From NCBI GenBank assembly GCA_963733035.1, contig CAVTBU010000004.1, forward strand, positions 256,001 through 320,000: a DNA stretch of 64,000 nt. Reading direction: 5' to 3'. Made by a program: the position numbers and the translations under genes. The notes beneath the pieces are model-generated. The model ran no database searches. It was given only the letters and a program-made list of their open reading frames with translations, and was not told the origin of the DNA. The DNA comes from Pirellulales bacterium. Its GTDB lineage: Bacteria > Planctomycetota > Planctomycetia > Pirellulales > PALSA-1355. Of this stretch, positions 4,061-25,847 are shown piece by piece; position 1 is the first letter of the stretch; each line of letters opens with the position of its first letter.

Positions 4061-4064
4061 TTTG

Positions 4065-9419: not shown

Positions 9420-9593
9420 GCCTCTTACCCCGCACAGAGTGCCTGCCGACTATCGGATGCTAAAGGTCGAACCGACTCTGGGTCATTGGGTAAACTGGCC
9501 AAAGCGTTTGTGCCCTCGGCACTACACTGAACCCTTCGAATTAACCGATACCGTCATTCTCGCAGACCACTGGTGAATCCGATGCCGGGACAA

Positions 9594-9762
9594 CTTGCAC
9601 TCACTTGCACTAGACTCCATGAAATCGTCGAATTCCATGCACTTGACGCGTCTGGTATGATTCAGTCGCGCATTGAATCGCAACGACTTACGTCAATCGA
9701 TCTGCGTTGACGACGAAGCTGGGGGTCAAGCGGTCGCAGGTTCAAATCCAGTCGCCCCGATT
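9594..9762 (+). repeat. 169-bp att-like repeat, copy 1 (TTGCACT arm repeats, IHF-like site, tRNA-Pro 3' half)
   Basis: Gap-free alignment with 20989-21157; about 25 mismatches counted by eye (about 85% identity). Confidence 0.92.
9719..9760 (+). pseudogene. 3' half of tRNA-Pro(GGG), anticodon loop to acceptor stem; att core remnant, not a complete tRNA
   Basis: CTGGGGGTCAAGCGGTCGCAGGTTCAAATCCAGTCGCCCCGA; no D-arm or 5' acceptor strand upstream. Confidence 0.85.
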
Positions 9763-10540
9763 AGACTTACGACGATTGCCGACGGGTTGCTAGTTGCACT
9801 AACTTGTCACTGTGTGGCTGATTTCTTCTTCAAGGGCTCTGCGGTGCGCGAGGCCGTGCACGTCACTTGGCGCCTTTCCGCGAGTCCGAAGCACATCGCA
9901 ACTGGCCACTTAGCGTCTCACGTCGATGACGCTATCTCGACGCTGTTGGCCGGTAAAAACCTGCCGCTTGACACGGAGTCAACCGGTCTTCGGCCGCCAA
10001 GCGGAACTAGGCCATGCATTCCGATTGCATTCAAGCGATCGCAGTTCAACGAATCGCGATCGGGTGCTCCAACAGCATCACTAGGTCAGTATGGCTCGCC
10101 AATATTCGAGCGTCAGATGGGTTGTGGGTCGAGAGCACGCAGGATTTTGGCGTTCGAGTGTCGGAGCGGCCGCCTACCCGAAACCTTTCTCGAATCGGGT
10201 TCGGATGTACCATTCGTGTACCCGTTGAGCATTCTCATAGACCGATATTCCTCGCTACGTACCAGTAACCTCGCCGACGACGGCTCCAAAGAGTGGGTGC
10301 CGCCCATTTCGCCGGATTCTGCGAGGCCCATCTCGGCACGTTTCCCGCAGAGTCGAACTGTGAGCGTGCTGCTTTCCCTGTTGACGGCCGGTGTCGCGTC
10401 TAGGCGGCAGCAACAGGAACTCGACGGGTTTTGTATTGCGAAGTGGCGCTGGTATGTTGGGGGGCTCGTACCCATCGGCCCCGCGATCAGTTCGACCATT
10501 CCTAGCCAATCTACTCGACATCAGGAGCGTATTACCCGTC

Positions 10541-11839
10541 ATGGCCGTTCCGAACCAACATGCTAAAACGATCATGGAACGGCTCCTCGGTGGTATGCCA
10601 CCCGAAGAGTTGACCAGCCGCTACGGCCCCCAGAGCCCGAAGGCGCACCGCCTTCCGCCCCGTGTTCCCGGCTCGGCAGACTACAGCACGGCGGCGCTGC
10701 AGCGCCGCCGTGAGATGCTCAATAAACGGGGCATTGAGCTGCACGAGTTGGCCGGGGAGGGAAATGGGATCGAGCCTGAGGGGTTGGCCGGCAATATCGA
10801 GAATCTGGTCGGAATGGCCCGTGTGCCGATCGGAGTCATCGGCCCCCTGCGAGTTCGCGGCACGGCGGCCAATGGAGATTTCTACATTCCGCTGGCCACC
10901 ACCGAAGGTGCGTTGGTCGCGTCGTGCCAGCGGGGTTCCCAGGCGATCAGCCGATCTGGGGGTGCATCCGCGTGTTGCTTCACCGAATCCGTGTCCCGCG
11001 CCCCCTGCTTCGCCTTCGAGCGGCTGACCGAGGCGGGCCAATTCCTGGCTTGGGTACTTCCCCAGTACGACCGACTACAGGAGGTCGTAGCAAGCACTTC
11101 GCGACATTGCCAGCTACTCGACTTGCGCACGACCGTGATCGGCAAGGAGGTTTATTTAGCGTTTGAATTCACGACCGGTGATGCGGCCGGTCAGAACATG
11201 GTGACAATCGCCACCGAAGCGATCTGCAAGTCGATCCTGACCGGCGCGCCCGTGCAGCCCAGTCGCTGGTTTCTCGATGGAAACCTTTCGGGCGACAAGA
11301 AAGCGACGATGCTCGGCTTTACCTACGCACGTGGAAAGAAAGTGGTCGCAGACGTGGTAGTCCAGCGTGAAGTGGTCCGGCGTTTCTTGCACACAGAACC
11401 GGACGAGATGTTTCGCTATTGGCAGGTTTCCATGCTGGGAGGCGTGCAAAGCGGATCGATCGGCGTGCAAGGTCATTTCTCGAACTCGCTGGCCGCGATG
11501 TTCATCGCCTGCGGCCAGGATGCGGCCTGCGTGTCCGAGGCTTCGGTGGGAGTTACTCGCATGGACGTGACACCCGACGGCGACCTCTACGTCGCCGTCA
11601 GCCTGCCGAACTTGATCGTCGGCACGGTAGGCGGAGGGACGCGATTGCCAACGCAACGCGAATGCCTGGAGATGATGGATTGCTATGGTAGCGGCAAGGC
11701 CCGCAAGCTGGCCGAAATCTGTGCCGTCACGGTGATGGCAGGCGAGATCTCGATCATCGCCGCCCTGACCGCCGGTCATTTCGGTCAAGCGCATGCGACG
11801 TACGGGCGACAGCACGCCGCTCCCGATGATTCCGAGTAG
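10541..11839 (+). CDS. Class I HMG-CoA reductase-like protein
   Basis: ENLVG...VPIGVIGPL, PLATTEGALVAS, TGDAAGQNM, GNLSGDKK, ACGQD.A, VGTVGGGT, C-terminal His (GQAH). Confidence 0.9.
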   Translation: MAVPNQHAKTIMERLLGGMPPEELTSRYGPQSPKAHRLPPRVPGSADYSTAALQRRREMLNKRGIELHELAGEGNGIEPEGLAGNIENLVGMARVPIGVIGPLRVRGTAANGDFYIPLATTEGALVASCQRGSQAISRSGGASACCFTESVSRAPCFAFERLTEAGQFLAWVLPQYDRLQEVVASTSRHCQLLDLRTTVIGKEVYLAFEFTTGDAAGQNMVTIATEAICKSILTGAPVQPSRWFLDGNLSGDKKATMLGFTYARGKKVVADVVVQREVVRRFLHTEPDEMFRYWQVSMLGGVQSGSIGVQGHFSNSLAAMFIACGQDAACVSEASVGVTRMDVTPDGDLYVAVSLPNLIVGTVGGGTRLPTQRECLEMMDCYGSGKARKLAEICAVTVMAGEISIIAALTAGHFGQAHATYGRQHAAPDDSE

Positions 11840-11859
11840 TGGCACCGGCTAAAGCATTC

Positions 11860-12951
11860 ATGGGTCACTATATCGATGAACGAGCCGATTTTGGCATTAT
11901 CCGTTATGCCAATTGCTGGGAAGACGCCGACGTACTCTGCGCAGCACTCGAGCCCGCGCCTGACAAGCGCATCCTGTCGATTGCGTCAGCCGGTGACAAC
12001 GCGTTGGCGTTGTTGGCTGGCGGATGCGAGGTCGTAGCGGCCGATTTGAGCCCGGCGCAGCTCGCCTGCGTCGAGCTACGAGCCGCTGCCTTTGGAGAGC
12101 TGGACTACCAAGATACACTTGCCTTCTTGGGTGTGGCCAGTTCCTCAGAGCGGCTGGCCACCTATCGCCTGCTGGCCCACCGCTTATCTGTTGGCGCTCG
12201 GGCCTACTGGGATAGCCACGAGAACTTGATCGCCGCGGGCGTCATCCATGCGGGAAAATTCGAAGACTACTTTCGCCGGTTTCGCCGGTTCGTGCTGCCG
12301 CTGGTGCACGGACCCGGTCGCGTGCGTGAGTTGCTCGCCGATAAGCCGCCGGAATCTCGTCTCGAGTTCTACGACCGCCGCTGGAACAGTCGACGGTGGA
12401 GGCTGTTGTTTCGGGTCTTCTTCAGCCGCCTAGTGATGGGCCGTTTGGGTCGCGATCCAGAATTCTTCCGCTATGTCGAAGGTTCGGTCGCGGACCGAAT
12501 TCTCGCACGCACGCAATATGCGCTGACGACGTTGCCCACGCATGAAAACCCCTACCTGCAGTACGTTCTGCACGGCAATTTCGGACCCGCGCTTCCTCGC
12601 TATCTGCGGCCCGAGCACTATCTGAAGATCCGCGCGGGGCTCGAGCGGCTGACGCTTGTCGAAGGCACCATCGAAAGCGTGGCAGCACGTGACGGACAGA
12701 AGTTCGACGGCTACAACCTATCTGACGTCTTCGAGTATCTAGATCCGGCCACCTGTCGTACGGTTTTCGAAAAGTTGCTGGCAACGGCGAATCAGGGTGC
12801 GCGGCTCGCGTATTGGAACATGCTGGTACCCAGGGAATGCCCTCAGGAACTGGCGGCACGCATGCGGCCGCTGCGTGATCTGGCCGAGAAACAATTTGCC
12901 AAGGATCTGGCCTTCTTTTACAGCCGGTTCGTGGTGGAGGAAGTCTGTTGA
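11860..12951 (+). CDS. DUF3419 / BtaA-like SAM-dependent (3-amino-3-carboxypropyl) transferase
   Basis: IRYANCWEDAD, ILSIASAGDNAL, ADLSPAQL, GKFE.YF, NPYL, FDGYNLSDVFEY; alternative GTG start at 11839. Confidence 0.85.
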   Translation: MGHYIDERADFGIIRYANCWEDADVLCAALEPAPDKRILSIASAGDNALALLAGGCEVVAADLSPAQLACVELRAAAFGELDYQDTLAFLGVASSSERLATYRLLAHRLSVGARAYWDSHENLIAAGVIHAGKFEDYFRRFRRFVLPLVHGPGRVRELLADKPPESRLEFYDRRWNSRRWRLLFRVFFSRLVMGRLGRDPEFFRYVEGSVADRILARTQYALTTLPTHENPYLQYVLHGNFGPALPRYLRPEHYLKIRAGLERLTLVEGTIESVAARDGQKFDGYNLSDVFEYLDPATCRTVFEKLLATANQGARLAYWNMLVPRECPQELAARMRPLRDLAEKQFAKDLAFFYSRFVVEEVC

Positions 12952-14339
12952 ATCCCTTGGCAGCGGATCTCTTAGGTGGTGCTGTGGTAACGGTGCTTTT
13001 CTTGAGCATCGTAGCGGCCGCCGAGGCGTGGCGAAGATGGGGCCGTCCCGATCCGGAGTCGACTCGCAAGCTGGTTCACATCGCCGGTGGCTTGGTCGCT
13101 TTGTGCCTGCCTTTCGTGGTTCGCTCGCACTGGATCGTGGGAGCGATGGCCCTGGGCATGGCAGTCTTGTTTCTCGCCGGGAAGTGGACCGGCCAGTTGC
13201 AAAGCCTGCATGGCGTCAGTCGCCGCAGCAGTGGCACGGAATACTATCCGCTAGTCATCTATCTATTGTTTTATTTCACGCAAGGCGCACCCGTAAAATA
13301 CATCATTTCCGTGCTTGTTCTTACTACGGCCGACAGCCTGGCCGCACTGATTGGCAGCCGCTATGGGCGCCTGCGGTACGAAGTCGACAACAACTTCAAG
13401 AGCGTGGAAGGATCTCTGGTCTTCTTTCTCGCCACGTTTCTGGCGGTTCTGGTTCCACTGCTTGCCTGGCCGATGCTGATCGGTCCGCTGGAAGCCTCGC
13501 CGACTTTGGTGGCGTGCGTTTTCACTGCGTTGCTGGTAGCCTTCCCGACCACGGGGATCGAAGCCATCGCCCAGCATGGCCGCGACAATCTGTGGGTGCC
13601 TCTAGGGACGCTGCTAATTCTCAACAACACCCTTCATCTACCCATTGATTCGCTTGCCAGGTGGACTTTAGTCCTGTTGACTATTTGCGCCATCACCGGA
13701 CTGGCGGTATGGCGAATTGCAACGTTCAACGTTGGGGCCACGGTGGTGCTGATCTTGGCGGCGTACGCCTGCTGGACTCTCACTTCGATTGACTGGGCGA
13801 TCCCATTCTTTCTGGCATTCGGATACTACCTGATTGCCGTTCTCGCGAGTCCGCAGCCCATGAAGATTGCTTCTCGGGCGGTCGTGAGAGCCTTGCTGCC
13901 ACCCTTCGTCGTGATGATGGCCGCGGCGCTGCTGCGGCACGAGGGCGCGACTCAAGTGTACGGGTTCCTCTATGGACCGTTCGTAGCTGGGTGCGCGTCG
14001 ATCGCAGGCCAATCCGCATGGGACCAGCTTACACACGGTTATAGCGCGGGTCGCGCGTTCAAGTTCCTTGGGTCAATTGCGAACACATGCCTGGCGTGTA
14101 TCGCGGCCATCTTGCCCGCGCAGCTGCTGCAACCAGGTATGACGTGGATCGCGCCGCTTTGGATCGCGGCCGCAGCGCTCGCCGTTGGTATACCCTCGGG
14201 AATGCTCGTCGACCATCCCGCGATTGTGCGTTCCACACGTTTGTGGGCGCTAGCCCGCATGGGCTTCATCACAGCGGCGTTGGGGCTGGTGGCGCTCGTC
14301 CAGGCTGCGGGGCTCAGTCCGCTCTGGCATCCGCGCTAG
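12948..14339 (+). CDS. Phytol/dolichol kinase-like (SEC59/VTE5, CTP-dependent) polytopic membrane protein with an extra C-terminal TM region
   Basis: ESTRKLVHIAGG, ADSLAALIGSRYG, KSVEGS, GRDNLWVP motifs; many TM helices. Confidence 0.82.
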   Translation: MNPLAADLLGGAVVTVLFLSIVAAAEAWRRWGRPDPESTRKLVHIAGGLVALCLPFVVRSHWIVGAMALGMAVLFLAGKWTGQLQSLHGVSRRSSGTEYYPLVIYLLFYFTQGAPVKYIISVLVLTTADSLAALIGSRYGRLRYEVDNNFKSVEGSLVFFLATFLAVLVPLLAWPMLIGPLEASPTLVACVFTALLVAFPTTGIEAIAQHGRDNLWVPLGTLLILNNTLHLPIDSLARWTLVLLTICAITGLAVWRIATFNVGATVVLILAAYACWTLTSIDWAIPFFLAFGYYLIAVLASPQPMKIASRAVVRALLPPFVVMMAAALLRHEGATQVYGFLYGPFVAGCASIAGQSAWDQLTHGYSAGRAFKFLGSIANTCLACIAAILPAQLLQPGMTWIAPLWIAAAALAVGIPSGMLVDHPAIVRSTRLWALARMGFITAALGLVALVQAAGLSPLWHPR

Positions 14340-17079
14340 GGGCGACATCGAGCCTGACCGTGCCGGCCGATCCGTCCATTGTGACATGCTGGCCGCTGTT
14401 GAGCGTGGCAGTCAAGCCCCTGATGCCGACAATCGTGGGAATGCCCATCTCTCTCGCAACGACGGCGGAGTGCGAAAGGATGCTCCCCCTTTCGATTAAC
14501 AAGCCCGAGACCGCCGGATAGAGAGGCACCCAGCCTGGGTCGGTCCGTTCGGCCACGAGAATCTCGCCGTTCAACTGCACGTCGTCGCGAGGGTCGGTGA
14601 TGACAATCACTTCTCCGCTGACGATGCCCGGCGAGCATCCCACACCGTGCAACACCCCGTCTTCGCCGACTGGCGCGTGTTGCTTATTGTTGACGAACCG
14701 ATTTCGATGATAAGCCATGCCGAACGTCTCGAAGCGTTCGTCCGGGGCGGCGCACTGTGCCGAGCGGTAACCTTCGAACTCGTTTTGCCGTAGCGAGGCC
14801 AGATCCCGCAGATTCGTGGTCACCGCCGTACCTTTGACGAAGTCCCAGACTTCGTCGATGGTAAGATAGAAGACCTGTTCGGGCTCGGAAAGAATCCCTT
14901 CCTCGGCCAATCGACGCCCCAATGCCCGCAACAGTTCGCGCAGCAGGCCGTAGATCCGAGTGCGGGCGAAGCGCATGTTTTCGCGATTTTTCACGCCCTG
15001 TCGTGCCCGTTTGAGCACCGCATGAAAGACGGCCCGCTTGAGGCCGGCGGTCGGTCCTCGCAACTCCTGCCGGACTTTTGCTTCGGCATCGTGGCGCACC
15101 TTTTGCTCGCGAGACTGCATGGTGGCCACGTCCAGTGCCGTCGGATCATTTAGCGCCAGGTAGTTCCGCAGCACTTGATAAACTAAGTGTGGGCGGTCGC
15201 GCAACGAGTACTCCTCCAACTTTAATTCGTCCATGCAACGAAAGCCGTAGAGTTCCAGGTAGTGATCGAACTCCGCTTGGAACTGGTGGAAACGTTCGTC
15301 GCCGGCCACACGTTGAGGGAGTTCGACTGGCGGTACCGTCGTGATCAGATCGCGCAGCGTCGGGTTCTGCTGTGCGCCGCCCGCCAGCCGGAGGAGCATG
15401 CGGGCAGGTTCTGCACTCTCTACGCCACCTTCGCCGCAGATCAGGTCGTTTTGCAGCGATCCCGATTCATCGTGACACCACGAACCACAAAGTTTCTTCA
15501 ACAATCCATAGTAGATCATTACATAGAAATCATTGACGATCGGCGCTTTCCAATTCCAAAGCAGCGATTCCTCCATCTCGTAGTAGAGCTGCATCAGCTC
15601 GTGGGGCCGCTGGCGATCGAGGTCGAGAGCCGACCACCGATCGTAATGCTCGCGAAAGTTCGCTTCGAAGCGGGACACGATCCCTCGAATCCGTACAAAG
15701 TTGAGAGCCGAACGACACAGTAGGCGTACCAGCGCTGGCAACTCGACGAACCAACGCCGCCAGAAGCCGCGCGGCGGCTCGTCATCACAATCGAGCTGCT
15801 CCCTCAGCCCCATCATGGATTCCATGAACTGCGCGTTGTATTGAAAGCCGGGAAAGAGTCGTACCAGCCGATACCAGTTCTGCAGGTTGTAGTAGACGCG
15901 GCCGCGAAAAAGCCCCAGCATGTTTTCGAACGTCCGCTCGTTTGCCCGTACCTTGGCCTGCGAAATACCCATTACCTGGGCGAAGCAATAATAGACGATC
16001 GTATATGCTCGGCGGATAAAGCTGAACGTCATCGGCGTGGTGACGCCGGAGTAGCTTTCGATAATGTTGGAATTGTCCCACACCAGGCGATGGCCCGCGG
16101 CCGGACCACATTCCCGCAAGTTGGTGACCGGCCGCGACTGCAGCATAAACAGGCTTCCCTGGCGATCGAAGCAGAACTCGATGTCCTGTGGTCGGCCGAA
16201 ATCTCGCTCGATTTCGATTGCCGCCCGTACCGCTTGGCGAACCTGTTCGTCGGACAGACTGCTCGCGGATTGCAGGTCGAGCGGCACTTCGTCGTGCCTC
16301 AGCCCGCCCCGCTGTTCGTCGAGCACCAGTTGCCGTTGCTTAGGTACAATCGCCGCCGAGAACTCCAGCGAGTCCTTGTCAACGGTATAGGTATCGGCGT
16401 CCAGGCCGGCGCTGACAAGCCCCTCGCCGAGACCATACAGGCTGCTGACGACCACTTGGTGCACACTTTCAGTGCCAGGATTGCAGGTGAACATGACGCC
16501 GCTTTGGGTCGCATCGATCATCTTCTGTACTATCACCGCCACCGCGACGTCTGCCAGTGGCACGCCCGAGCGCAGGCGGTAGACGATCGCCCGCTCATTA
16601 AAGGCCGACGCCCATACGCCACGAATGGCGCGCAGCGTTTCATGCGGACCGCGCACAAAAAGAAAGCTGTCGTGCATGCCGGCGAAGGATTGCTGGGCTG
16701 AATCCTCATCTAGCGCAGAGGACCGAACGGCGACATAGCCTTCGGCTCGGAATGATCCGCTGTATTGCCGACAGATGAGCTGCTCCAGCTCGTCGGGAAC
16801 GGGGCAGTTGGCAATGGCCGCTCGAAGCGCCGCGGCCGCTTCAACCACGGCCGTTTCACCCTGGACGGCGCCGAGGGCCTGAATACGGGATGCGAACCCG
16901 CCGAACTGCATCGCGTGCTCGAAGGCCGCGGCCGTGACGGTAAAGAATTCCGGCACCCGCTGTCCGGTTTGCCGAAGCCGCAGCAGGTTTGCGGCCTTGC
17001 CACCCACACGCTCAGCCAGCGCATTTGACGGTGCCGACTCGTCCGTCACAAGCCAATCGTTCTCGCTCATCCGACTCAA
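14314..17079 (-). CDS. PEP-utilising / dikinase-type enzyme with RPH/PigC domain order (ATP-grasp, substrate domain, C-terminal phospho-His swivel)
   Basis: VGGKAANL, VAVRSSALDEDS...SFAG, PQDIEF, LQSRPVT, TDPGW, GSILSHSAVVAREMGIP; start at TTG 17079 or ATG 17070. Confidence 0.88.
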   Translation of the reverse strand: MSRMSENDWLVTDESAPSNALAERVGGKAANLLRLRQTGQRVPEFFTVTAAAFEHAMQFGGFASRIQALGAVQGETAVVEAAAALRAAIANCPVPDELEQLICRQYSGSFRAEGYVAVRSSALDEDSAQQSFAGMHDSFLFVRGPHETLRAIRGVWASAFNERAIVYRLRSGVPLADVAVAVIVQKMIDATQSGVMFTCNPGTESVHQVVVSSLYGLGEGLVSAGLDADTYTVDKDSLEFSAAIVPKQRQLVLDEQRGGLRHDEVPLDLQSASSLSDEQVRQAVRAAIEIERDFGRPQDIEFCFDRQGSLFMLQSRPVTNLRECGPAAGHRLVWDNSNIIESYSGVTTPMTFSFIRRAYTIVYYCFAQVMGISQAKVRANERTFENMLGLFRGRVYYNLQNWYRLVRLFPGFQYNAQFMESMMGLREQLDCDDEPPRGFWRRWFVELPALVRLLCRSALNFVRIRGIVSRFEANFREHYDRWSALDLDRQRPHELMQLYYEMEESLLWNWKAPIVNDFYVMIYYGLLKKLCGSWCHDESGSLQNDLICGEGGVESAEPARMLLRLAGGAQQNPTLRDLITTVPPVELPQRVAGDERFHQFQAEFDHYLELYGFRCMDELKLEEYSLRDRPHLVYQVLRNYLALNDPTALDVATMQSREQKVRHDAEAKVRQELRGPTAGLKRAVFHAVLKRARQGVKNRENMRFARTRIYGLLRELLRALGRRLAEEGILSEPEQVFYLTIDEVWDFVKGTAVTTNLRDLASLRQNEFEGYRSAQCAAPDERFETFGMAYHRNRFVNNKQHAPVGEDGVLHGVGCSPGIVSGEVIVITDPRDDVQLNGEILVAERTDPGWVPLYPAVSGLLIERGSILSHSAVVAREMGIPTIVGIRGLTATLNSGQHVTMDGSAGTVRLDVAPSADARAD

Positions 17080-18036
17080 GAGACAATGACTCCGTTGCGA
17101 GATCCTAATGCGAGCGCCATCGTGAGATCAAATGCGATGATGTACATGCCGGCATACGTCTCCATACGATGGGCGGTCTTCGTCGAGGTGTGGAAACGGA
17201 ATTGAAAGAACCCCAGCAGACACACTCCGTATAGTGCGACTAGCACGGCGTAGAACCACCAGGGAAGACCCAGGTGGTATCCGACCGCGGCAACCATTCC
17301 GGTATCGATCACGCGCACCAGCAGTACTGCGTAAGCCGCGCCGTAGGTGCCAAAGATCTTTGTATAGGTGTCGACTCCGTCGCGTTCGTCTTCCGGCGCG
17401 AATCTTTCGAGAAATCTCCCAGTTGAAGGTAACAAAGAAGCCGACAAACGCATAGAACCAATACCACTGCGATGCTTCCCAGAGATAGCGATTCGTAGTG
17501 TAACTGTAAACAACCATTGCGAGTAGCGGCATAATCAGCATGTGCGACGTTGCGTACAGGAGAAAGTGCTTGCGAAGCCACGAGCCGACAAAGAACTCTT
17601 TGAGCATCAGTAGCGAGAAGATGAGCACCGCGGCAACCGCCACTAGCGCGGCCGGTGAAACGAAGATGGCCCACACTAGCGCCGCGCTCAGTTCCCAGCC
17701 AATGGCCACGCCACCGAGAACTTTCAGGTCGCGGAGCGTGATCAGTCCACTTTGCAAGACGCGATCGGGATAGTGGCGGCAATCTTCGGCGTAGTCTTTG
17801 TGTTCGTCGAAGACTCGCAGGTGGAAAAAGATCGCCAATAGCGTGGCGGCCCCTACGAGCGAACTCAGCGAATAGCGCATCTGCTCGCCGGGGTGGGTCA
17901 GCGCTTGCGCGAGAAACTGATTACACGAGTAGTAGCTAACGATCAACACCCCATGCCCAACCGGCGGAAACCGTTCTTGGAGGTAGGCCCACAGCCGAAC
18001 TGGAAACGGTGAATTGACAGTCAGGTTATTCGCCAT
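17076..18036 (-). CDS. UbiA-superfamily prenyltransferase-like membrane protein, one frameshift near 17400
   Basis: ERFP, LRVFDEHKDYAED...PDRVL.SG Asp-rich motif; frame 1 ...EISRKIR continues in another frame as APEDERDGVDTYTKIFG plus TM helices. Confidence 0.75.
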
Positions 18037-18067
18037 GCGCGAGCCCGGGTGGACCACTCCTGGAATG

Positions 18068-19714
18068 CTAGGATCGCCGAGCCGCGTCCGACGAGGCCGT
18101 TAGAAGCCGTCGCAACGCCCGATAATCGACTTTCGAGCGGTGCCGCGGGTCGAGCGGCAAGGGATGCTCGGCACGGCGGACGTCATCCACCGGAAGCCCA
18201 ACCTGTTCAATCCTCTGCCGCACCCGCGTAAGTATATCGCCTCCGCATGTCGTTTCGACAACCACTACGACCCGTTCCCCCATTTTGTCATCCGGCAAGC
18301 CGATCGCGGCGATTCTCAAATTGGCGTCGCCACCGGCGCCGGCCTGTTCGACAAGTTGAGGATGCACCGCCTCACCGTCGCGGTGGATGGTTGAGTGAAC
18401 GCGGCCGACCAACCAAACGTAGCCCTGCGCGTCGACGTACCCCGTGTCGCCCATCCGATGCCAGACGGTTCCGTCGACGTCGACGATCTTGTTTTCCGCA
18501 ACTGCCGTTGCATCGCGAAAATAGCCGCGCGCGACGTGGTCTCCACAAACGATCAACTCGCCCGATTCGCCGCGGGGGACTTCCCAGGGGGCCCAGCCGG
18601 CTCCGTCCAAAGAGATCGGTCCGCCGTGAATTCGCACGACGCGCAATCGCACCAGGGGGCTCGGCCTGCCAACGCAATAGCCGGCCGCTTCGCGCGTGGC
18701 CGACGTTGCCAGGGCAATCCGTCGATCCGCCTCGATGTGGGCAACCGGTTCGGCCTCAGTCGAGCCATAGACAACCAGCAGTTGCGCGTCGGGCCAGGCG
18801 TTCCGCCAGGTGGCAAGCTGCCGATCGCTCACCGGGGCACCCCCTGTGAGAATTCGTCGCAACGAATAGTGCGCGCCTGAACGCCGGTCTTGGTATTCGG
18901 CAAGGCGGTCGATGAACGGAGGCGAGGCCGTGCAGGTCGTCACCCGATTGCGGCGCATTTGGTCCACGATGCTCGAGGCGTCCACCTGATCTACGCGCCG
19001 AAAATCGATTGACGGAATAATCGACGAAATGCCACGGGCGAGGTTATTCAATGCGAACACCGGAAACAGTGGCATATCGACGTCGTCGTCCGATTGCGGA
19101 AACTCTTGCTGCAGCGCCGCATGTTGTGCTTGCAGAAATCCATGCGTCCGCTCGACGCCCTTGGGCAGGCCGCTGGAACCGCTGGTAAATGTGATCATGG
19201 CCGCGTCGGTGGCGGCGGTCGCGGTGATGTGACCGTCGCCCGCCTGGCGCTGCAACTCGTGCAGCGAGTACCGAGCTGGCAAGCGCAACCAACAGCGGCC
19301 CGTGGTTACGGTGATCGGGACCTGCCGTAGCGAACGATCAACAAGCCGCAGCAAGTGACTCTTCGGAACGCCGATCCAAGCCGAGGTTTGTGCGAACGAC
19401 ACGAAGGCCGAGATCTGCCGACGACCGACCCAGGGATCGACGAACACGGCAGTGGCTCCGCATTTGAGCGTGGCGAGCAACAGCGTGTAGAGATCGATCG
19501 ACATCGGGATCATTAATAGGGCCCGCTCGCCCGGTCGCAGCCCCGCGGCGCGCAATCCCACACTGGTTCGATCGACACGTTCCCATAGATCGGCGAAGGT
19601 GACTCGCTCATCTCGCCCGCGCTGATCCTGCATCACCAGGGCTGTACGCGAGCCGTACTGTGCCGCAACGCGAGCCAGCAGCGCCACGACATTTCTATCG
19701 GCTTGGGCTGTCAT
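18068..19714 (-). CDS. AMP-binding adenylate-forming enzyme (OleC-like / acyl-CoA ligase)
   Basis: FTSGSSGLPKG, YGSTEAEP, WHRMGDTGY, LPLDPRHRSKVDY. Confidence 0.88.
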   Translation of the reverse strand: MTAQADRNVVALLARVAAQYGSRTALVMQDQRGRDERVTFADLWERVDRTSVGLRAAGLRPGERALLMIPMSIDLYTLLLATLKCGATAVFVDPWVGRRQISAFVSFAQTSAWIGVPKSHLLRLVDRSLRQVPITVTTGRCWLRLPARYSLHELQRQAGDGHITATAATDAAMITFTSGSSGLPKGVERTHGFLQAQHAALQQEFPQSDDDVDMPLFPVFALNNLARGISSIIPSIDFRRVDQVDASSIVDQMRRNRVTTCTASPPFIDRLAEYQDRRSGAHYSLRRILTGGAPVSDRQLATWRNAWPDAQLLVVYGSTEAEPVAHIEADRRIALATSATREAAGYCVGRPSPLVRLRVVRIHGGPISLDGAGWAPWEVPRGESGELIVCGDHVARGYFRDATAVAENKIVDVDGTVWHRMGDTGYVDAQGYVWLVGRVHSTIHRDGEAVHPQLVEQAGAGGDANLRIAAIGLPDDKMGERVVVVVETTCGGDILTRVRQRIEQVGLPVDDVRRAEHPLPLDPRHRSKVDYRALRRLLTASSDAARRS

Positions 19715-20847
19715 CTGGGCTCGCCTGCGTATTGATAGAGAACATAGCGTCGGCTCACAGTTCCTTTGTTGCTGTCGAGGCGACCGGATGGGTTTCCTTC
19801 ACGAATTAAACACAGGTTCGCCCGGCGAATCCCCCTTTGCAGGATCGCGTGGTAACATCGCCACGTCAGGGCACCCGCCACGCCAAAGCGACGATGATCG
19901 GCCAAGACGCCGACTGTTTTCATGTTCACTGCGTCGGCGGTTCGCCGGTTCAGCATAAAACGCAGCTTAGCCAGCGGTCCGTCTTTGCCGCGCATGGCCG
20001 AAACCGCGCGGTGATAGTCGACCATCGCGAACAAAAAGCCCACGGCCTCTCCCGCCGACGTCTCGGCGATCAACACGAGTGTCGGATCGATGAGCGAACG
20101 GACCGGTCGGTATAGCGCGAGAAAATCGGCCAGGCTGATTTCTTCGTAGAGAAAGTTGCCGGCAAAGATCTGTGTCGAAATCCGATAGATGATTTCAATC
20201 TCCTCCTCAAACCGGTCCATCACCAGGGGACGCAGGCGATACCCTCGGTCCAACACATCATCGTGGATCCTGGCCAGTCCGGCCGCGGCGGCCTCGATAT
20301 CTTCGATCCGAGTTGAATAATAGTTCTCTAGTGGTTCGAATCCGGCCCGTTGCCACAGGTCGCCGTAGTAGGGCCTGTTGTACGGCTCCATTAGAAAAGG
20401 AGGTTGACGGAACTGTCCGAGGTTAAATCGATACCGATGCCATGTGTCGCCGTCCATCGGTCCGACAATCGTTCGCACACCTCGCTTCATGAGCCAATCA
20501 ACGCCGGTTGTCAGTAGCTGACCAACCTCATTGGGAGCTTCGACCGCTTCGAAAAACCCCAACATGCCAACCGGCGCGTGATTCTCGTCAACCAGCACGG
20601 GTGAGATTCGGACAACCGTCCGAGCTAGCGTCCGCTTGCCGCTTCGCCACAGCAAAGCTCTTTGCCGTTCCGCAAAACGCTCGCGCAAGAGGCTTGCTCG
20701 CGTCTTGGCAAGCGGCTCGGCAATGTAATAGGGGTCATCCCGATAAATCGAACGCGGTAGCTCCAGAAAGGACTGCAAATCCTCCTCGGTGGCTAACGCG
20801 TCAATGATCACCGGTGACGACTCTTGAGACGCACGGCTCCAGAACAA
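19711..20847 (-). CDS. YghO-like tandem GNAT N-acyltransferase
   Basis: FLELPRSIYRDDP, GMLGFFEA, WL..RG...IVGP, PFLMEPYN.PYY, VGVLADHRRFGVAGAL acyl-CoA motif A; start uncertain. Confidence 0.78.
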   Translation of the reverse strand: MFWSRASQESSPVIIDALATEEDLQSFLELPRSIYRDDPYYIAEPLAKTRASLLRERFAERQRALLWRSGKRTLARTVVRISPVLVDENHAPVGMLGFFEAVEAPNEVGQLLTTGVDWLMKRGVRTIVGPMDGDTWHRYRFNLGQFRQPPFLMEPYNRPYYGDLWQRAGFEPLENYYSTRIEDIEAAAAGLARIHDDVLDRGYRLRPLVMDRFEEEIEIIYRISTQIFAGNFLYEEISLADFLALYRPVRSLIDPTLVLIAETSAGEAVGFLFAMVDYHRAVSAMRGKDGPLAKLRFMLNRRTADAVNMKTVGVLADHRRFGVAGALTWRCYHAILQRGIRRANLCLIREGNPSGRLDSNKGTVSRRYVLYQYAGEPR

Positions 20848-20988
20848 ACGGCAGCGATCATTCTAGTCTTGGATCCTCGTACTGGTAGGACATTTACTTC
20901 ACGACCCTATGCCAGATAGCCTTGGGTCGCCAGAGACTCTGGGTGTCATCGAAGATGGCGCCGGTACTGGTAGCCCATCTCCCGCCGC

Positions 20989-21157
20989 CTTGCACTCGCT
21001 TGCACTCGACTCACCGAATTCAACGAAATCGATACACTTGACGCGTTTGGTATGATTCAGTCGCGCGTTGAAAGGCAAGGACTTACGTCAGTTTCTCTGC
21101 GTTGATCACGTAGCTGGGGGTCAAGAGGTCGCAGGTTCAAATCCTGTCGCCCCGATT
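20989..21157 (+). repeat. 169-bp att-like repeat, copy 2
   Basis: Colinear with 9594-9762 at offset 11,395. Confidence 0.92.
21114..21155 (+). pseudogene. 3' half of tRNA-Pro(GGG); att core remnant
   Basis: CTGGGGGTCAAGAGGTCGCAGGTTCAAATCCTGTCGCCCCGA; 5' half absent. Confidence 0.88.
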
Positions 21158-21337
21158 TCATATTTCTTAAGTGATTATTATTAAATGACTTACGATGATG
21201 CGAGCTTCGGGCGGTTTTCCTGTCGCCCTTACGTTCTTGATGCCCGCTGTGCCGGCCGAAAACGATTGTTGGGCTGAGTTTACGCGATGCGCTGCGCGCT
21301 CACTCACGCAGCACAACGATTCTCTAGCCGCGAAAAA

Positions 21338-21357
21338 TGCAGCGCATTTGCAGCGCG
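21338..21357 (+). repeat. 20-bp direct repeat (arm-type-like), copy 1
   Basis: TGCAGCGCATTTGCAGCGCG, identical to 25578-25597. Confidence 0.85.
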
Positions 21358-21448
21358 ACAATCGGACGTAAGCGTTTCTGCAACGACGCCCTAGTCACTG
21401 CCCTACGTCCGGATTCGGAATTCCCTGAGAGATCACAAGCTTCCTCTC

Positions 21449-21476
21449 TTGACAAACTGTTAGTTGCATATACAAT
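21449..21476 (+). promoter_or_regulatory. Sigma70-type promoter of marR overlapped by a palindromic operator
   Basis: TTGACA(21449)-16 nt-TACAAT(21471); GTTGCATATACAA near-palindrome overlaps the -10. Confidence 0.7.
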
Positions 21477-21518
21477 CAAACCAGGGGGCATGAAGTGGGA
21501 GCCGACCATATCCAAGCG

Positions 21519-21950
21519 ATGATTGACAAGGTCGCCAGCGAGTGCGTTGCCGTTCGGCTGCGCATGCTGAATCGCGTCGTCACGAACATCTACGATGACG
21601 CGCTGCGGTCGCTTGACCTTAAGGTGAGCCAGATGAACATTCTGGTCGCCGCCGCCAAGATGGGAACGGCTCGCCCCGTTGAAGTTTGCGAGCATCTCCA
21701 TCTCGATGTTTCGACTCTCAGCCGCAACGTCGAACGAATGAAGGCACGTGGCTGGCTGGAAGTGGTGCCCGACGAGGACGGCCGCTCGCAGCCTTTCCGT
21801 CTGACACCGCAGGGGCGCAAGCTGCTGGAAAAGGCGCTCCCGGCCTGGAGCGCGGCGCAACAGCAGGTCAAGAAGGTTTTAGGAGACGGGTTCGTAGAGC
21901 AGTTGGACCAAGCCATGAAGCGGTTCAACAAGAGTGCCGCAGCGAGCTGA
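21519..21950 (+). CDS. MarR family winged-helix regulator
   Basis: ECVAVRLR...VTNIYDDAL, SQMNILV, LHLDVSTLSRNVERM...GWL, LTPQG; start at ATG 21519 or GTG 21495. Confidence 0.9.
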   Translation: MIDKVASECVAVRLRMLNRVVTNIYDDALRSLDLKVSQMNILVAAAKMGTARPVEVCEHLHLDVSTLSRNVERMKARGWLEVVPDEDGRSQPFRLTPQGRKLLEKALPAWSAAQQQVKKVLGDGFVEQLDQAMKRFNKSAAAS

Positions 21951-21965
21951 TTTTTTTTCGCGATG

Positions 21966-21981
21966 TAGTTGTATGTACAAC
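21966..21981. promoter_or_regulatory. Second putative MarR operator, immediately before the RBS of the fusion enzyme
   Basis: TAGTTGTATGTACAAC versus TAGTTGCATATACAA at 21461-21475. Confidence 0.65.
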
Positions 21982-21992
21982 AAGGAGCGGCC

Positions 21993-24455
21993 ATGAAGCT
22001 CGAAGATCATCCGACAGTGCAGCGGATTCGCCTCAAGACCGCACCTTCCGTTCCGCCCACCAAGGAGTCGCTGGATGCCGGATGGCTCAAGCAACTCGTC
22101 CTCGATGCCGGCGCTGTTGACGTGGGGTTTGTCGAAATTGGTAGACCCGCCTTGGACGATCAGCGGGAAGACATACTCAAGGCGTTCCCCCACACCAAGA
22201 CCCTAATCAGCTTCGTGGTTCGCATGAACCGAGAGGCGATTCGGACACCGGCTCGCTCGGTTTCCAACCTCGAATTCCACCATAGCGGAGAGGAGGTCAA
22301 TCACATTGCGCGGAGCGTGGTTCAGACTCTGGAAGACCGGGGAATTCGCGCCATGAACCCCGCGATGGGCTTCCCGATGGAAATGGGGCGGTTCCCCGGC
22401 AAGGTTTGGATCGTATCCCACAAGCCAGTCGCGGTGGCAGCGGGGCTTGGCATGATGGGCATTCACCGCAACGTGATCCATGAAAAGTTCGGCAATTTCA
22501 TTCTGCTTGGGACGATCCTGTTGGAAGCCGAGGTTTCAGAGTTCAGCCGGCCGATCGACTACAACCCATGCCTGGAATGCAAACTGTGCGTGGCCGCATG
22601 TCCTGTAGGGGCCATCTCGCCGGAAGGCAATTTCAACTTCTCGGCCTGCTATACCCACAACTACCGCGAGTTCATGGGCGGCTTCACCGATTGGGTCGAG
22701 CAAGTGGCTGACAGCAAGAACTCCCGCGACTACCGTAGCCGGGTCAGCGATGCGGAGTCGGCATCGATGTGGCAGAGTCTTTCCTACGGGGCGAACTACA
22801 AGGCCGCGTATTGCCTGGCGGTCTGCCCGGCTGGAGAAGATGTGATTGGGCCGTTCCTTGCTGATCGGAAGGCCTATCTCAATGAAATCGTACGGCCCCT
22901 TCAAGAGAAGGAGGAGACGATTTACGTCACTAAAAACTCCGACGCCGAGGATCATGTCGCCAAACGGTTTCCCCACAAAACAATCAAGCATGTCGGCAAT
23001 AGCCTGCGGCCAAACTCCATCGAGGTTTTTCTTAACAGAATGCCGAACGCATTCCAGCCAGGCAAGTCGACCGGATTGAACGCTACGTACCACTTCACCT
23101 TCACGGGCCATGAACAGCGGCAGGCAACGGTCGTGATTCGGGACCAGAAACTCAGCGTGTACGAGGCGCATGTCGGACAGCCCGATCTGCACGTGACCGC
23201 TGACTCACAAACGTGGATCGGCTTTTTGAGGAACGAACGAAACGTCGTATGGGCCATTCTCCGGCGGAAGATTCGGCTCGCTGGCCCACTCAAACTGCTG
23301 GTCGCGTTCGGAAAGTGCTTCCCGAGCGCAGGTGGCCGACAGGAGCTGGTCGAGTTCGTACCGCAACCCTCCAAACTCAGGGGCGGGCCTGCGCCCTACG
23401 TGAAAAATGACCCAGTTACCCGAGAAACCCGCTGGCGTGGCAAGTTCACGCTCTCGGAGGTTGTTGACGAGACTCCCGAGGTGAAGACCTTCCGCTTCGT
23501 TCCTCCTAGTGGCGGGGCAATCCCCTTCGAGTACCTGCCTGGCCAGTTCGTGACGCTCCACGTTGCGCCTCGGGGCATACCGACCAAACGTTCCTATACG
23601 ATCGCGTCGTCGCCCACATGGCGCGACCGGATCGAGATCACGGTGAAACGCGAAGGTCAGGGACTAGTCTCGCGGTGGTTGCACGACGAACTGAAGATCG
23701 GGGACGAGGTCGAGATCGAAGCGCCGAATGGGACCTTCACCTTCAACGGCAATGAGGCGGACCGAGTGGTACTGATCGGCGGCGGCGTAGGAATTACGCC
23801 TCTGATGAGCGTAGTGCGTTATCTCACCGCGACGAACTGGCCGGGCAAGATGCACTTAATTCTCGGCTTTCGGTCGCCGCGAGACTTCATTTTTCGAGAG
23901 GAACTGGCCGAACTCCAGGCACGCAACTCCAATCTCAGCGTCACGATCACCATGAGCGGTCCGGAAGACGAGCCGTGGTCGGGGCGCGTCAGGCGAATCG
24001 ATGCGACCCTGCTCACTTCGACCGTGCCTGAACTCGCGACACATCGCGTGCATGTATGCGGGCCACCGCCAATGATGGACGCAGTCAAGACTGCGCTCGT
24101 TTCGCTCGGCGTCCCCCATGCTCAAGTCAACACCGAGGCGTTCGGAACGATCAAACGCGATCCCTCCGCAAAGGATGCCGGATCAACGGAGATCGCGGGC
24201 AAGGCTTTCTTCCGGGCTTCCGGCGTGACCGCACCGGTTCCGGTCGATGCAACGATACTCGACGCGGCCGATACGGCCGGCGTCGTCATCGACAACGCCT
24301 GCCGTTCCGGCACATGCGCATCCTGCCGCGTCAAGCTGGTCTCGGGCCAGGTGACGATGGCCGTCGAGGATGCGCTGACCGATCAAGACAGAGTCGAGGG
24401 TTACATCTTGGCCTGCCAGGCCAAGATCCAGGGCGATATTGAAGTCGACGCTTGA
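21993..24455 (+). CDS. QueG/reductive-dehalogenase-like 4Fe-4S domain + SCP2 + FAD/NAD(P)H FNR + 2Fe-2S ferredoxin fusion
   Basis: SHKPVAVAAGLG..G, CLECKLCVAACP, YCLAVCP; SCP2-like YHFTFTG...PDLHVTADS; RSYTIAS, GGGVGITP, VCGP, TEAF; CRSGTCASC...LACQ; AAGGAG RBS. Confidence 0.85.
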   Translation: MKLEDHPTVQRIRLKTAPSVPPTKESLDAGWLKQLVLDAGAVDVGFVEIGRPALDDQREDILKAFPHTKTLISFVVRMNREAIRTPARSVSNLEFHHSGEEVNHIARSVVQTLEDRGIRAMNPAMGFPMEMGRFPGKVWIVSHKPVAVAAGLGMMGIHRNVIHEKFGNFILLGTILLEAEVSEFSRPIDYNPCLECKLCVAACPVGAISPEGNFNFSACYTHNYREFMGGFTDWVEQVADSKNSRDYRSRVSDAESASMWQSLSYGANYKAAYCLAVCPAGEDVIGPFLADRKAYLNEIVRPLQEKEETIYVTKNSDAEDHVAKRFPHKTIKHVGNSLRPNSIEVFLNRMPNAFQPGKSTGLNATYHFTFTGHEQRQATVVIRDQKLSVYEAHVGQPDLHVTADSQTWIGFLRNERNVVWAILRRKIRLAGPLKLLVAFGKCFPSAGGRQELVEFVPQPSKLRGGPAPYVKNDPVTRETRWRGKFTLSEVVDETPEVKTFRFVPPSGGAIPFEYLPGQFVTLHVAPRGIPTKRSYTIASSPTWRDRIEITVKREGQGLVSRWLHDELKIGDEVEIEAPNGTFTFNGNEADRVVLIGGGVGITPLMSVVRYLTATNWPGKMHLILGFRSPRDFIFREELAELQARNSNLSVTITMSGPEDEPWSGRVRRIDATLLTSTVPELATHRVHVCGPPPMMDAVKTALVSLGVPHAQVNTEAFGTIKRDPSAKDAGSTEIAGKAFFRASGVTAPVPVDATILDAADTAGVVIDNACRSGTCASCRVKLVSGQVTMAVEDALTDQDRVEGYILACQAKIQGDIEVDA

Positions 24456-24466
24456 GGGGGTAGTTC

Positions 24467-25451
24467 ATGGGGTTCGGATTATTCGCCCTTGCGTTCGTTG
24501 GCTCAGCCGTCGGACTGTGGCTCGTATCCCAGGTCACGGAAGCGCTGCGCCCCGTCCCGCAAACACCCGAGACCCTGCGCTGGGCTCCGAATATCCCGAT
24601 CGGCTACCTTGATATCGGCGGCTGCAAACTTCGTTACATCAAGGCCGGCCGGGGGCCGAATCTCGTGCTCCTCCACACCCTGCGCACCCAACTCGATCTC
24701 TTCGAGAAGGTCGTGCCGGAACTGGCTCGCCAGTTCACAGTCTACGCGCTCGATTATCCCGGCCACGGTTATTCGGACATTCCCGAAGCGCAGTACGATG
24801 CCGAATTCTTCGCCCAGTCCGTCGCGAAGTTCCTCGATGTCCTCGATCTTCACGACGTGACGCTCAGCGGTGTGTCCATCGGCGGCGCAGTCGCCCTGAT
24901 TTTGGCCGGCCAGCGAAACCCGCGAATTGCCCGGGTGGTGGCGATCAACCCGTACGACTACGCCAAGGGTCGCGGGATGGCGCGCAGCTCGCCATTGGGG
25001 TGGCTGATCACAGCAGCCTCGGACATTCCCCTAGTCGGTGAAACGATCATGCGCTTGAGAAATTTCGCGATCATGCGGGCCGTTCTCCAGGGTGGCGTCG
25101 CGAATCGCGAGAGCATCCCGCGCGCTTCTCAAGGAAATGTACCTCGTTGGCAATCGGCGCGGCCATTACCGAGCCTTTATCCGCTTGCTGCGTCAGTCGG
25201 CGAGCTGGGAAAAAGCCACCGAATCGTACAAAAACATCAGTCTCCCGGTGCATCTCGTCTGGGGCAACAAAGATTGGGCCAGGCCCGACGAGCGCGAGCA
25301 CGATCGCAGCCTGATTCCGAGGGCCGAGATGCACACCGTGGAAAATGGCGGGCACTTCTTACCGCTCGATCGGCCGGATGCCGTGGTCGATCTTCACAAA
25401 CGCATCGGGGCTGGTTCCGACGGATGTTCCGGCGGCAAAATCATCGACTAA
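24467..25451 (+). CDS. Alpha/beta fold hydrolase with N-terminal TM/signal segment, one frameshift near 25125
   Basis: LVLLHT, YALDYPGHGYS, GVSIGG nucleophile elbow; second frame LVWGNKDW...GGHFLPLDRP. Confidence 0.82.
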
Positions 25452-25577
25452 CTCTGAGAGTGCACTAATGCAACTACGGCGTTGCGAATTGCATCCGGCA
25501 AGCGGTTCCAGCCGCTAATCACGCCCTGCAGATCAGCGTCATTCAATGCCGATTCGAGCCATTTGAGGCGACCCGTT

Positions 25578-25597
25578 TGCAGCGCATTTGCAGCGCG
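25578..25597 (+). repeat. 20-bp direct repeat (arm-type-like), copy 2
   Basis: Identical to 21338-21357. Confidence 0.85.
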
Positions 25598-25654
25598 GCA
25601 CATATCGCAATCGGTGTAACCGCAAGCGCCACAATCGGTTGACAAAAAATCAGG

Positions 25655-25680
25655 CGCAGGTTCAAATCCAGTCGCCCCGA
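25655..25680 (+). pseudogene. Short tRNA-Pro 3' end (T-arm plus acceptor strand); att remnant
   Basis: CGCAGGTTCAAATCCAGTCGCCCCGA, identical to the last 26 nt of the 9719 copy. Confidence 0.8.
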
Positions 25681-25847
25681 TTTTGACAATACCCGACAAC
25701 TACTGACAAACTGCGTCGAAACCCATGCAACCGCGATGGTTTTGTCGTTTCTGGTTCGAGACAACGTTGCCATTCAGAGACACCGAATAGCCCGATGGGC
25801 AACCTGCGTAGCGAGAATCGCGTTTGTCGACGCGCTCCCGCGAATGT

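Follow-up and report, generated by a model that had tools for sequence, protein, structure and literature searches.

The stretch of DNA analysed here, which we call the window, is 64,000 nucleotides of the genome of a Pirellulales bacterium (G000:C4:256001-320000, where G000 is the present genome, a 92%-complete assembly of 10 contigs), and it carries three displaced 3' pieces of a proline tRNA gene, tRNA-Pro(GGG), with island DNA between them. The original prediction, drawn from the window, had placed an intact tRNA-Pro(GGG) on the + strand to its left, and a whole-genome ARAGORN search finds that gene at C4:192575-192650, + strand, 63.4 kb left of window base 1; the same program finds no tRNA gene within the window. 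The three pieces belong to a longer row that spans 89 kb, with at least five displaced tRNA-Pro 3' pieces and at least six elements, and that reads tRNA, A1, a 14-nt piece, A2, DR1, B, DR2, C, DR3, D, DR4 and E, where DR1 to DR4 are displaced pieces and the elements A1, A2, B, C and D measure 19.8, 35, 18.2, 11.4 and 4.5 kb, respectively. A complete integrase gene is absent throughout the 89 kb, and fragments of two integrase genes flank DR4 (window 25448-25807). The following features carry the argument, with coordinates of the window or, to its left, of contig C4.

About C4:212400: degenerate 14-nt tRNA piece, with a copy of cassette C's left arm behind it
C4:229460-229482: inverted 23-nt tRNA-Pro piece with the CCAGT variant, inside element A2, beside a GACTTAC word
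C4:247391-247558: DR1, third full 169-nt unit, 92% identity (BLAST), left of the window
C4:247559-265593: element B, between the unit at C4:247391-247558 and that at window 9594-9762
Window 1-9593: right part of element B
Window 9594-9718, + strand: non-coding type-1 P arm, right end of element B, with TTGCACT at 9595 and 9605
Window 9719-9760, + strand: DR2, displaced tRNA-Pro(GGG) 3' half, matching tRNA positions 34-75 from the anticodon loop to the discriminator base at 40/42, with a CCAGT T-stem variant
Window 9763 to about 10010, + strand: P'1, left arm of element C, about 245 nt, non-coding, with TTGCACT at 9794
Window 10391-20847: cargo of element C (Pfam)
Window 20989-21113, + strand: type-1 P arm, right end of element C, with TTGCACT at 20990 and 21000
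Window 21114-21155, + strand: DR3, displaced tRNA-Pro 3' half, 42/42 to the tRNA
Window 21158-21375, + strand: P'D, left arm of element D, non-coding, ending in a tandem TGCAGCGC block at 21338-21355
Window 21495-25468, + strand: cargo of element D, comprising a MarR regulator, an Fe-S/FAD/NAD oxidoreductase and an alpha/beta hydrolase (Pfam)
Window 25448-25699, - strand: Int-C, detached C-terminal piece (about 80 codons) of a split tyrosine-integrase gene, doubling as the type-2 P arm, with TGCAGCGC at 25578-25595
Window 25655-25680, + strand: DR4, 26-nt tRNA-Pro T-arm/acceptor piece, 25/26 to the tRNA, the type-2 (T-loop) attachment core
Window 25681-25807 (coding read from 25655), - strand: Int-N stub, the last 51 codons of an integrase main body, with an in-frame stop; left-arm remnant of element E

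The four displaced fragments DR1 to DR4 lie on the + strand in the direction of the tRNA (identities of 42/42, 40/42, 42/42 and 25/26), and those of the window stand where they had first been noted. The repeats lie far beyond chance, because whole-genome BLAST returns E values of 8.9e-50 for the 169-nt unit, 3.8e-12 for the 42-nt half and 2.9e-7 for a 28-nt short piece. Identity of the 42-nt copies DR2 and DR3 begins exactly at CTGGGGG in the anticodon loop, and the pieces start either at tRNA position 34 (anticodon loop) or at position 50 (T stem, the 26-nt copy); the anticodon loop and the T-arm region are the crossover sub-sites listed for tRNA islands in the part of PMC4383910 available to us. 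Hence the displaced fragments of the island DNA fall into two kinds, the anticodon-loop 42-nt copies as opposed to the T-loop 26-nt core that sits inside an integrase frame. The earlier view that the fragments are 3' halves left by anticodon-loop crossover holds for the former, whereas the latter is of T-loop origin. As to the inverted 23-nt piece within A2, it possibly marks an inversion or a further old boundary.

Window 9594-9762 and 20989-21157 form an ungapped direct repeat of 169 nt with 85% identity, each copy consisting of a 125-nt non-coding arm followed by the tRNA sequence from the anticodon loop to the 3' end. The two flanks agree at 102/125 positions, and the description of fragments beginning at the anticodon loop behind a gapless flank of about 125 bp was accurate. 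These units, here called type 1, are right-end attachment sites. The arm opens with two TTGCACT words 10 nt apart, a tandem found in the whole genome at three units only. BLAST with the unit, as had been proposed, finds the third unit at DR1 and copies in the genomes G006 and G262, and the array is larger than had first been seen. The five known copies of the arm (one each in G006 and G262 besides the three of this genome, hence in 3/33 genomes of the family) come from three genera and are 64-90% identical: 90% for DR1-DR2, 86% for DR3-G006, 84% for DR3-DR1, 82% for DR3-DR2 and 79% for DR2-G006, with the G262 arm at 64-69% to the others. The nearest copy of the DR3 arm is therefore that of G006, from another genus, and not that of its own-genome neighbours. 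The units in G006 and G262 adjoin unrelated genes. Coding sequence was considered for the arm and ruled out, as all frames contain stops and codon periodicity is absent.

In its architecture the type-1 unit appears to resemble an integrase-bearing 50-kb element in G029: both would have tandem arm words 125-145 nt upstream of an anticodon-loop core, with GGTTGC following 14-28 nt downstream, a likeness read by eye from printed flank sequences. A pattern scan of genome contigs for the conserved arm block returned the G006 contig only, and two metagenome scans and one viral scan gave no match, so an integrase-bearing relative of the type-1 arm was not found. Further short arm matches of 25-37 nt occur in G124, G148 and G248, the one in G148 without an adjoining tRNA piece. 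An integrase at the start of G262:C7 was set aside, as it belongs to a tRNA-Ser/Leu-like site and not to the type-1 unit 49 kb off. Among metagenome contigs, one spans window 9694-9844 with zero mismatches and two match window 9595-9632 only and then diverge leftward; this divergence may fit a module edge at 9594, though other organisms are possible as its source.

The left arm of element C recurs as well. P'1 is 80% identical to C4:212424-212651, the left arm of A2, and 76% identical to G051:C21:35493-35691, on a contig whose entire 57 kb contain no integrase. Both of these copies directly follow a tRNA-Pro piece, and the homology stops at one common place in 3/3 copies. A2 and C thus have both arms in common and not their cargo. 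The CCAGT T-stem variant adjoins both P'1 arms in the present genome (at DR2 and at the 14-nt piece of A2), as would be expected because anticodon-loop crossover predicts it if that half came with the element; the G051 copy reads CCTGT. The cargo of C encodes an HMG-CoA reductase, a DUF3419 protein, a PEP-utilising enzyme, a UbiA-like protein, an AMP-binding enzyme and two proteins without family match. This cluster has matches in 6 other genomes of a 400-genome sample of the order and in 0/32 other genomes of its own family, and it is colinear in G079 and G073 at 64-70% nucleotide identity. Element B carries efflux, two-component system, aldo-keto reductase, aldehyde dehydrogenase and SDR genes (Pfam), and neither the Pfam scan nor a six-frame search finds a recombinase domain in it.

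Two further observations concern the left ends. The left arms of B and A1 (C4:247557-247630 and 192651-192720) hold a direct and an inverted tRNA T-arm-like word, with a 12-bp hairpin in the B copy, which could be a terminator or a relic attachment site. The early genes after a type-1 unit include one for a SUKH-1/SMI1-KNR4 immunity-type protein both here (L011:2229-3174, that is C4:247679-248624), where it adjoins a DUF6928 protein, and in G006 (L042:3698-4420).

The 26-nt site is of another build. Left of DR4 lies an 83-codon minus-strand open reading frame (ORF), P0001, whose start lies inside the tRNA piece and whose amino acids 1-81 align with amino acids 425-505 of a 507-aa integrase ORF, P0016, from G087 (46% identity, E 3e-23). 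In P0016, as in P0017 from G237 (573 aa), a single frame holds the PF00589 tyrosine-integrase domain, a tail, a GIEP motif encoded by the tRNA T-loop, and the Int-C domain; the integrases beside the tRNA in G002 and G003 have 63% identity to P0016 amino acids 26-440 and end inside the tRNA. The attachment core thus lies inside the integrase gene, because P0016 and P0017 run unbroken through it and the G002 and G003 integrases stop in the tRNA, and integration would put the body of the gene at the tRNA end and about 80 codons at the far repeat. This arrangement is seen in G002, where the integrase body (C316:28159-29499) stands beside the tRNA and Int-C (75966-76220) beside a 33-nt repeat on the same strand, 48 kb apart. 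The P0001 flank and the DR4 core are kept in G002, G032 and G011 with third-codon variation.

On the right of DR4, the Int-N stub has 63-67% amino-acid identity to the tRNA-adjacent integrases of G003 and G002 (tblastn, E 5e-15), and upstream of it an FGGY kinase gene stands in place of the rest of the integrase. When window 25448-25849 is read through the stop (X), stub, core and Int-C are colinear with P0016 amino acids 390-505 (E 2e-26); thus DR4 is the junction at which D ends on its right and a decayed element E begins. The statement that no integrase lies between the fragments was correct for whole genes, and not for window 25448-25654, which is a detached integrase 3' end.

Int-C has homologues in 67/401 genomes of the order. 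P0001 itself has 14 database homologues, all unnamed or labelled 'hypothetical', and no Pfam, NCBIfam or PHROG family match. An AlphaFold model of Int-C (mean pLDDT 70) places three helices at residues 32-82 and leaves the N-terminus disordered, and a Foldseek search of the PDB with it gave nothing at E 0.001 or better. The idea that P0001 is an excisionase was dropped, since it aligns with integrase C-termini. Small 'hypothetical' ORFs that start in a tRNA-like piece are, on these alignments, detached integrase tails and markers of island ends. Int-C matches also occur in stacks that lack matching integrases: five at 790-836 kb of G262:C1, with no PF00589 in the stretch, five at 7.026-7.112 Mb of G279:C1, with one integrase on the opposite strand, and two on G020:C216, 3.1 kb apart. 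By BLAST, a tRNA-Pro core is present in G020 and G051 only; the remaining stacks may use other tRNAs.

The word TGCAGCGC is repeated in tandem at four places of this genome only: in the left arm of D (window 21338), in its right arm (window 25578) and twice on contig C5. The right-hand arm site sits within the Int-C coding sequence. Cassettes built like D are found in four other genomes, and the five genomes represent four families. In the present D (4.5 kb), G032 (4.2 kb) and G011 (9.1 kb), both ends are common and the cargo is dissimilar by tblastx; in G020 (about 3 kb), the left arm is common over 181 nt; the cassette of G051 measures about 11 kb. When the five left arms are aligned they show one architecture, with similarity ending just past the arm-site block in 5/5. 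Int-C stands at the right end of all five, PF00589 is found in 0/5, and the Pfam domains of the cargo differ across all five: besides the D genes listed above, there are a LysR and an FGE-sulfatase-domain protein in G032, glycosyltransferases, a sigma factor and a kinase in G011, three proteins without family match in G020, and a two-component system with nitrite-reductase-like genes in G051. Arm identity between families is 75-94%, as against only 64-67% in the few coding stretches common to same-genus genomes.

ORFs of at least 70 aa were called with a simple heuristic based on length and on G+C content at third codon positions, and 80 of them from C4:187400-291137 (41 + 39) were compared with Pfam without finding an integrase, recombinase, transposase or relaxase domain; nor were type IV secretion system domains or conjugation remnants among the matches. 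When all six frames of the genome were searched for PF00589 at E up to 1, there were 17 matches; those on C4 do not reach past 36834, and several of the 17 adjoin other tRNA genes. Eight integrases from the tRNA-Pro loci of relatives, used in tblastn at E up to 1, returned tRNA-encoded words and one real remnant, the Int-N stub. In the bodies of A1, A2, B, C and D, neither search finds an integrase remnant.

In relatives, the same tRNA is a hotspot. The tRNA half is matched in 36/40 of them (37/41 with the present genome), and a second or third tRNA copy on the same contig and strand is found in G003, G002, G029, G032 and G011. Four of these five, searched with PF00589, have an integrase within about 1.3 kb of tRNA-Pro(GGG), namely G003, G002, G029 and G032, and in those four a second tRNA piece lies 10-56 kb away on the same strand; G011 has no PF00589 between tRNA and repeat. 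Upstream of the tRNA, consecutive genes including NDK and an OMP-decarboxylase-like gene are colinear with those of G002 and G003, two genomes of the same genus; amino-acid identity is 70-85% for most of them, with one ORF at 47-48%. The ORFs between tRNA and DR4 have no match of at least half their length in the tRNA-Pro loci of these two genomes, and C and D are absent at the DNA level from G001-G004 and G006, except for one D gene elsewhere in G004. The cargo is accessory, and the alternative named with the original prediction, that it might be syntenic core sequence in relatives lacking the repeats, does not apply, as the left flank is colinear with G002 and G003 and the cargo is not. From window 25700 to 45000 there are scattered matches only, in same-genus genomes.

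A recombinase that might act on D is encoded elsewhere in the genome. At C5:33783-34628 lies the gene of a 281-aa tyrosine recombinase with a SAM-like N-terminal and a catalytic domain. About 20 nt separate the end of this gene from a 22-nt tRNA-Pro T-arm core, whose type-2 arm is split by an IS110 insertion. The recombinase is a possible helper for D. Two paralogues of it sit at other tRNA-like pieces.

The surroundings of these C5 sites deserve separate mention. The second type-2 arm with its 22-nt core spans G000:C5:32339-33766, with the IS110-family transposase gene at C5:32576-33598 within it, and past the split arm lie the 281-aa tyrosine recombinase, a RuvB-like ATPase and a PolyVal metallopeptidase. 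One paralogous tyrosine recombinase stands at a tRNA-like T-arm piece at G000:C5:79008-82069, with a 579-aa large serine recombinase as neighbour. The tandem TGCAGCGC at C5:1096072 lies about 500 nt downstream of a tRNA-Gln (C5:1095494-1095565) with no integrase nearby, and is possibly an integrase-less site.

Site-specific integration at the tRNA very probably accounts for every feature of the row. Accretion at a tRNA gene is a known mode of genome growth, of which some details are unusual here, and successive accretion at this one hotspot, as originally proposed, is borne out by the intact tRNA, by the integrase-bearing elements of relatives at the same tRNA and by the non-core cargo. Each arriving element would recombine with the tRNA gene and bring a new 3' half, and the old 3' half, with all earlier arrivals, would be displaced rightward. 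Two classes of integrase would have been at work: one crossing over in the anticodon loop, with non-coding TTGCACT arms, would give the 169-nt units, and another crossing over in the T loop, with its own gene spanning the site, would leave about 80 codons (Int-C) at the far end and give the 26-nt copy. A2, C and D would have kept both arms and spread horizontally without an integrase of their own, inserted by an integrase acting in trans or by a co-integrated helper, while E lost its integrase in place.

Whether the islands decayed or were mobilised in trans had been left open by the original prediction, and here the balance tips towards non-autonomous cassettes, as conserved arms enclose cargo that is unrelated. 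With a confidence slightly better than even, we favour for A2, C and D the successive site-specific integration of cassettes that resemble cis-mobilisable elements (CIMEs), their integrase being supplied in trans. This reading is supported by the coinciding inner edges, by the arm pairs around unrelated cargo and by the arms being 75-94% alike against 64-67% for coding sequence. The main rival, possible if rather doubtful, is that the islands were instead autonomous, each with its own integrase that was later lost in place, so that the arms are leftovers of recent transfers and nothing was mobilised in trans. Several points speak for such loss or weigh against the cassettes. Decay in place is certain at this locus, where the Int-N stub has an in-frame stop and its upstream part is replaced by the kinase gene; a partial integrase is fused to Int-C in G012:C14; and the type-2 arm on C5 is broken by the IS110 insertion. 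Decayed elements and scattered partial tRNAs are moreover to be expected in tRNA-seeded islands, as far as the available parts of bioRxiv 10.1101/2020.12.28.424599 and PMC5704250 describe them. A cognate integrase for the type-1 arms was not found: neither a homologue of the anticodon-loop integrases of G003 and G029 nor an integrase with TTGCACT-type arms turned up in the 92%-complete assembly, and none lies near type-1 arms in any genome searched (the G006 contig covers 9.7 kb, and in G262 about 20 kb on each side), which makes any helper of A2, B and C hypothetical. The left arms of A1 and B are alike over only 53/65 nt within this genome, the BLAST similarity of the G051 left arm is confined to the arm-site block, and in G011 the similarity beside the core extends only about 20 nt past the tRNA. 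Copies are few, 2-5 for each arm type, the arm boundaries are drawn from 3-5 of them, and the related genomes are not independent. Finally, no direct sign of mobility was obtained: the proposed check for circle junctions or joints over window 8000-27000 gave none in low-depth contigs of three soil-metagenome runs from one study (share 0.10-0.20). Loss in place would, however, need independent deletions that end alike in three P'1 and five P'D copies and spare both arms every time; neither the six-frame nor the tblastn search detects an integrase remnant in A1, A2, B, C or D; and such loss sits poorly with arms that are more alike between families than the few coding stretches are within a genus.

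Two other explanations dispense with integration. Spread of the 169-nt unit by local duplication or ectopic recombination, or an origin of the pieces as duplicated tRNA remains, would fit the 90% identity of the DR1 and DR2 arms and the partial likeness of the A1 and B left arms, but no 5' tRNA half stands beside any copy and every long copy begins at tRNA position 34. The own-genome copies are also not each other's nearest relatives, DR3 being closer to the copy of another genus, and local duplication is therefore disfavoured, as it is by the unrelated genes beside the units of G006 and G262. An assembly repeat is contradicted by differences of 8-18% between the copies and by the metagenome contig that spans window 9694-9844 without mismatch. 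We consider this family of explanations very unlikely. More improbable still, in our judgement, is a functional RNA or regulatory module made of the 125-nt flank and the tRNA half and unconnected with recombination. Flank blocks that are invariant in 5/5 copies, including an imperfect inverted repeat around ACGCGT, would suit it, but an Rfam scan of window 9300-26000 finds nothing at the units (one weak radC hit, E 0.27, lies elsewhere), and RNAalifold on the five copies gives an unfavourable positive covariation term with compensatory change in 4/49 predicted pairs. The units, besides, always stand at borders between unrelated gene sets, and their architecture matches that of the integrase-bearing G029 element.

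The closest described counterparts of the non-autonomous cassettes are the CIMEs, which, in the portion of PMC5704250 available to us, are said to keep attL and attR without integration or transfer genes and to form tandem rows at a tRNA gene's 3' end, where newcomers use the regenerated site. Similarly, attL and attR are kept here in C (TTGCACT left, TTGCACT twice right), in A2 (the same arms) and in D (TGCAGCGC twice at each end), and neither Pfam scan nor six-frame search found integration or transfer genes. The same portion describes CIMEs as decay products, in Firmicutes, of integrative and conjugative or integrative and mobilisable elements (PMC5704250). Here, in contrast, no conjugation or relaxase remnant is seen, the array contains no helper element, and in several genera and families the same arm pairs surround unrelated cargo, a pattern suggestive of a non-autonomous family that perpetuates itself. 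D retains Int-C and therefore descends from an integrase-bearing element; for C and A2, no ancestor was found in the searches made.

The row also has the hallmarks of the islands collected by Islander, as given in the accessible part of PMC4383910: an intact tDNA with direct displaced 3' fragments, sub-sites in the anticodon loop and T arm, and tandem arrays with one fragment per island. Islander demands an integrase per island, as that part of the article states, and would thus reject every island here (PMC4383910); its survey of 3919 islands, in the same part, met with arrays of at least three in only 4 cases (PMC4383910), to be compared with at least five displaced pieces and zero complete integrases in the present array. 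With the tycheposon model, in the part of the preprint available (bioRxiv 10.1101/2020.12.28.424599), the locus shares the tRNA as seed, older material pushed distally, scattered partial tRNAs and remnants, and mostly inactive DNA. The model as presented there concerns material without clear boundaries (bioRxiv 10.1101/2020.12.28.424599), whereas the arms here are precise and conserved on both sides; the phylum and the integrases are also others, and no tycheposon hallmark genes were seen, no specific test for them having been made.

Integrases that extend across attP are not new, as the Mx8 IntP and the SSV-type integrases are named as such in the available text of PMC4383910. In common with them, the core lies inside the integrase frame and the 3' end of the gene is separated on integration, with intact 507-aa and 573-aa ORFs in relatives. 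The present integrases differ in that the split would come later than the catalytic domain, some 70 codons before the 3' end, that the detached piece is predicted to carry P-arm binding sites, and that it also ends cassettes without an integrase body.

Integrons are defined by an intI gene beside attI, by folded attC hairpins, and by short, mostly single-gene, promoterless cassettes in one orientation. A row of cassettes, a repeated recombination site, a fixed genomic anchor and few recombinase genes per cassette are common to both systems, and the original prediction had spoken of an integron-like use of the tRNA site. Yet no recombinase follows the tRNA, where the first ORFs encode two small family-less proteins and a trypsin-like peptidase; the units are tRNA-derived direct repeats without a supported attC-like fold; the cassettes measure 4.5-35 kb, with several genes on both strands and regulators of their own; and each site is bipartite, with lambda-like arms on either side of a core that stems from the tRNA. 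The array lacks all three defining features and is not an integron, so that the comparison survives as a loose analogy only.

Most genomic-island DNA has no recognisable mobility genes, and its route of entry is an old question. Our searches for literature on trans-acting integrases of integrase-less tRNA islands, and on planctomycete tRNA islands, gave nothing usable. The present locus makes the question testable in an understudied phylum, since it offers both arms of three cassettes, arms that recur, and a candidate recombinase family. If a trans-acting integrase does move cargo-only cassettes, island finders that require an integrase overlook a whole layer of mobile DNA. For annotation, detached integrase tails can serve to mark island ends in the 67/401 Pirellulales genomes that have them. 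We speculate, very tentatively, that Pirellulales possess a tRNA-anchored gene-capture platform, in which families of integrase-less multi-gene cassettes, with conserved arms at both ends, would be loaded in succession and unloaded at tRNA-Pro by site-spanning helper integrases, with the Int-C peptide at the end of each T-loop-type cassette helping to control recombination; it would parallel integrons in function only, having large self-regulated cassettes and lambda-like sites.

Some observations lie apart from the array. In this genome, about 44 tRNA genes are packed into 27 kb at G000:C6:241456-268483, including a second, divergent tRNA-Pro(GGG), and this may be a tRNA-array island or a phage-derived block. 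In G012, a 301-aa tyrosine recombinase is found at seven places on several contigs with identical scores, which suggests a multi-copy element moved by a tyrosine recombinase. Within the window, positions 51400-57100 hold three tandem repeats of about 1.86 kb with 75-92% identity and many nested sub-repeats of 63-78 nt, and they look like a giant gene for a repetitive surface protein.

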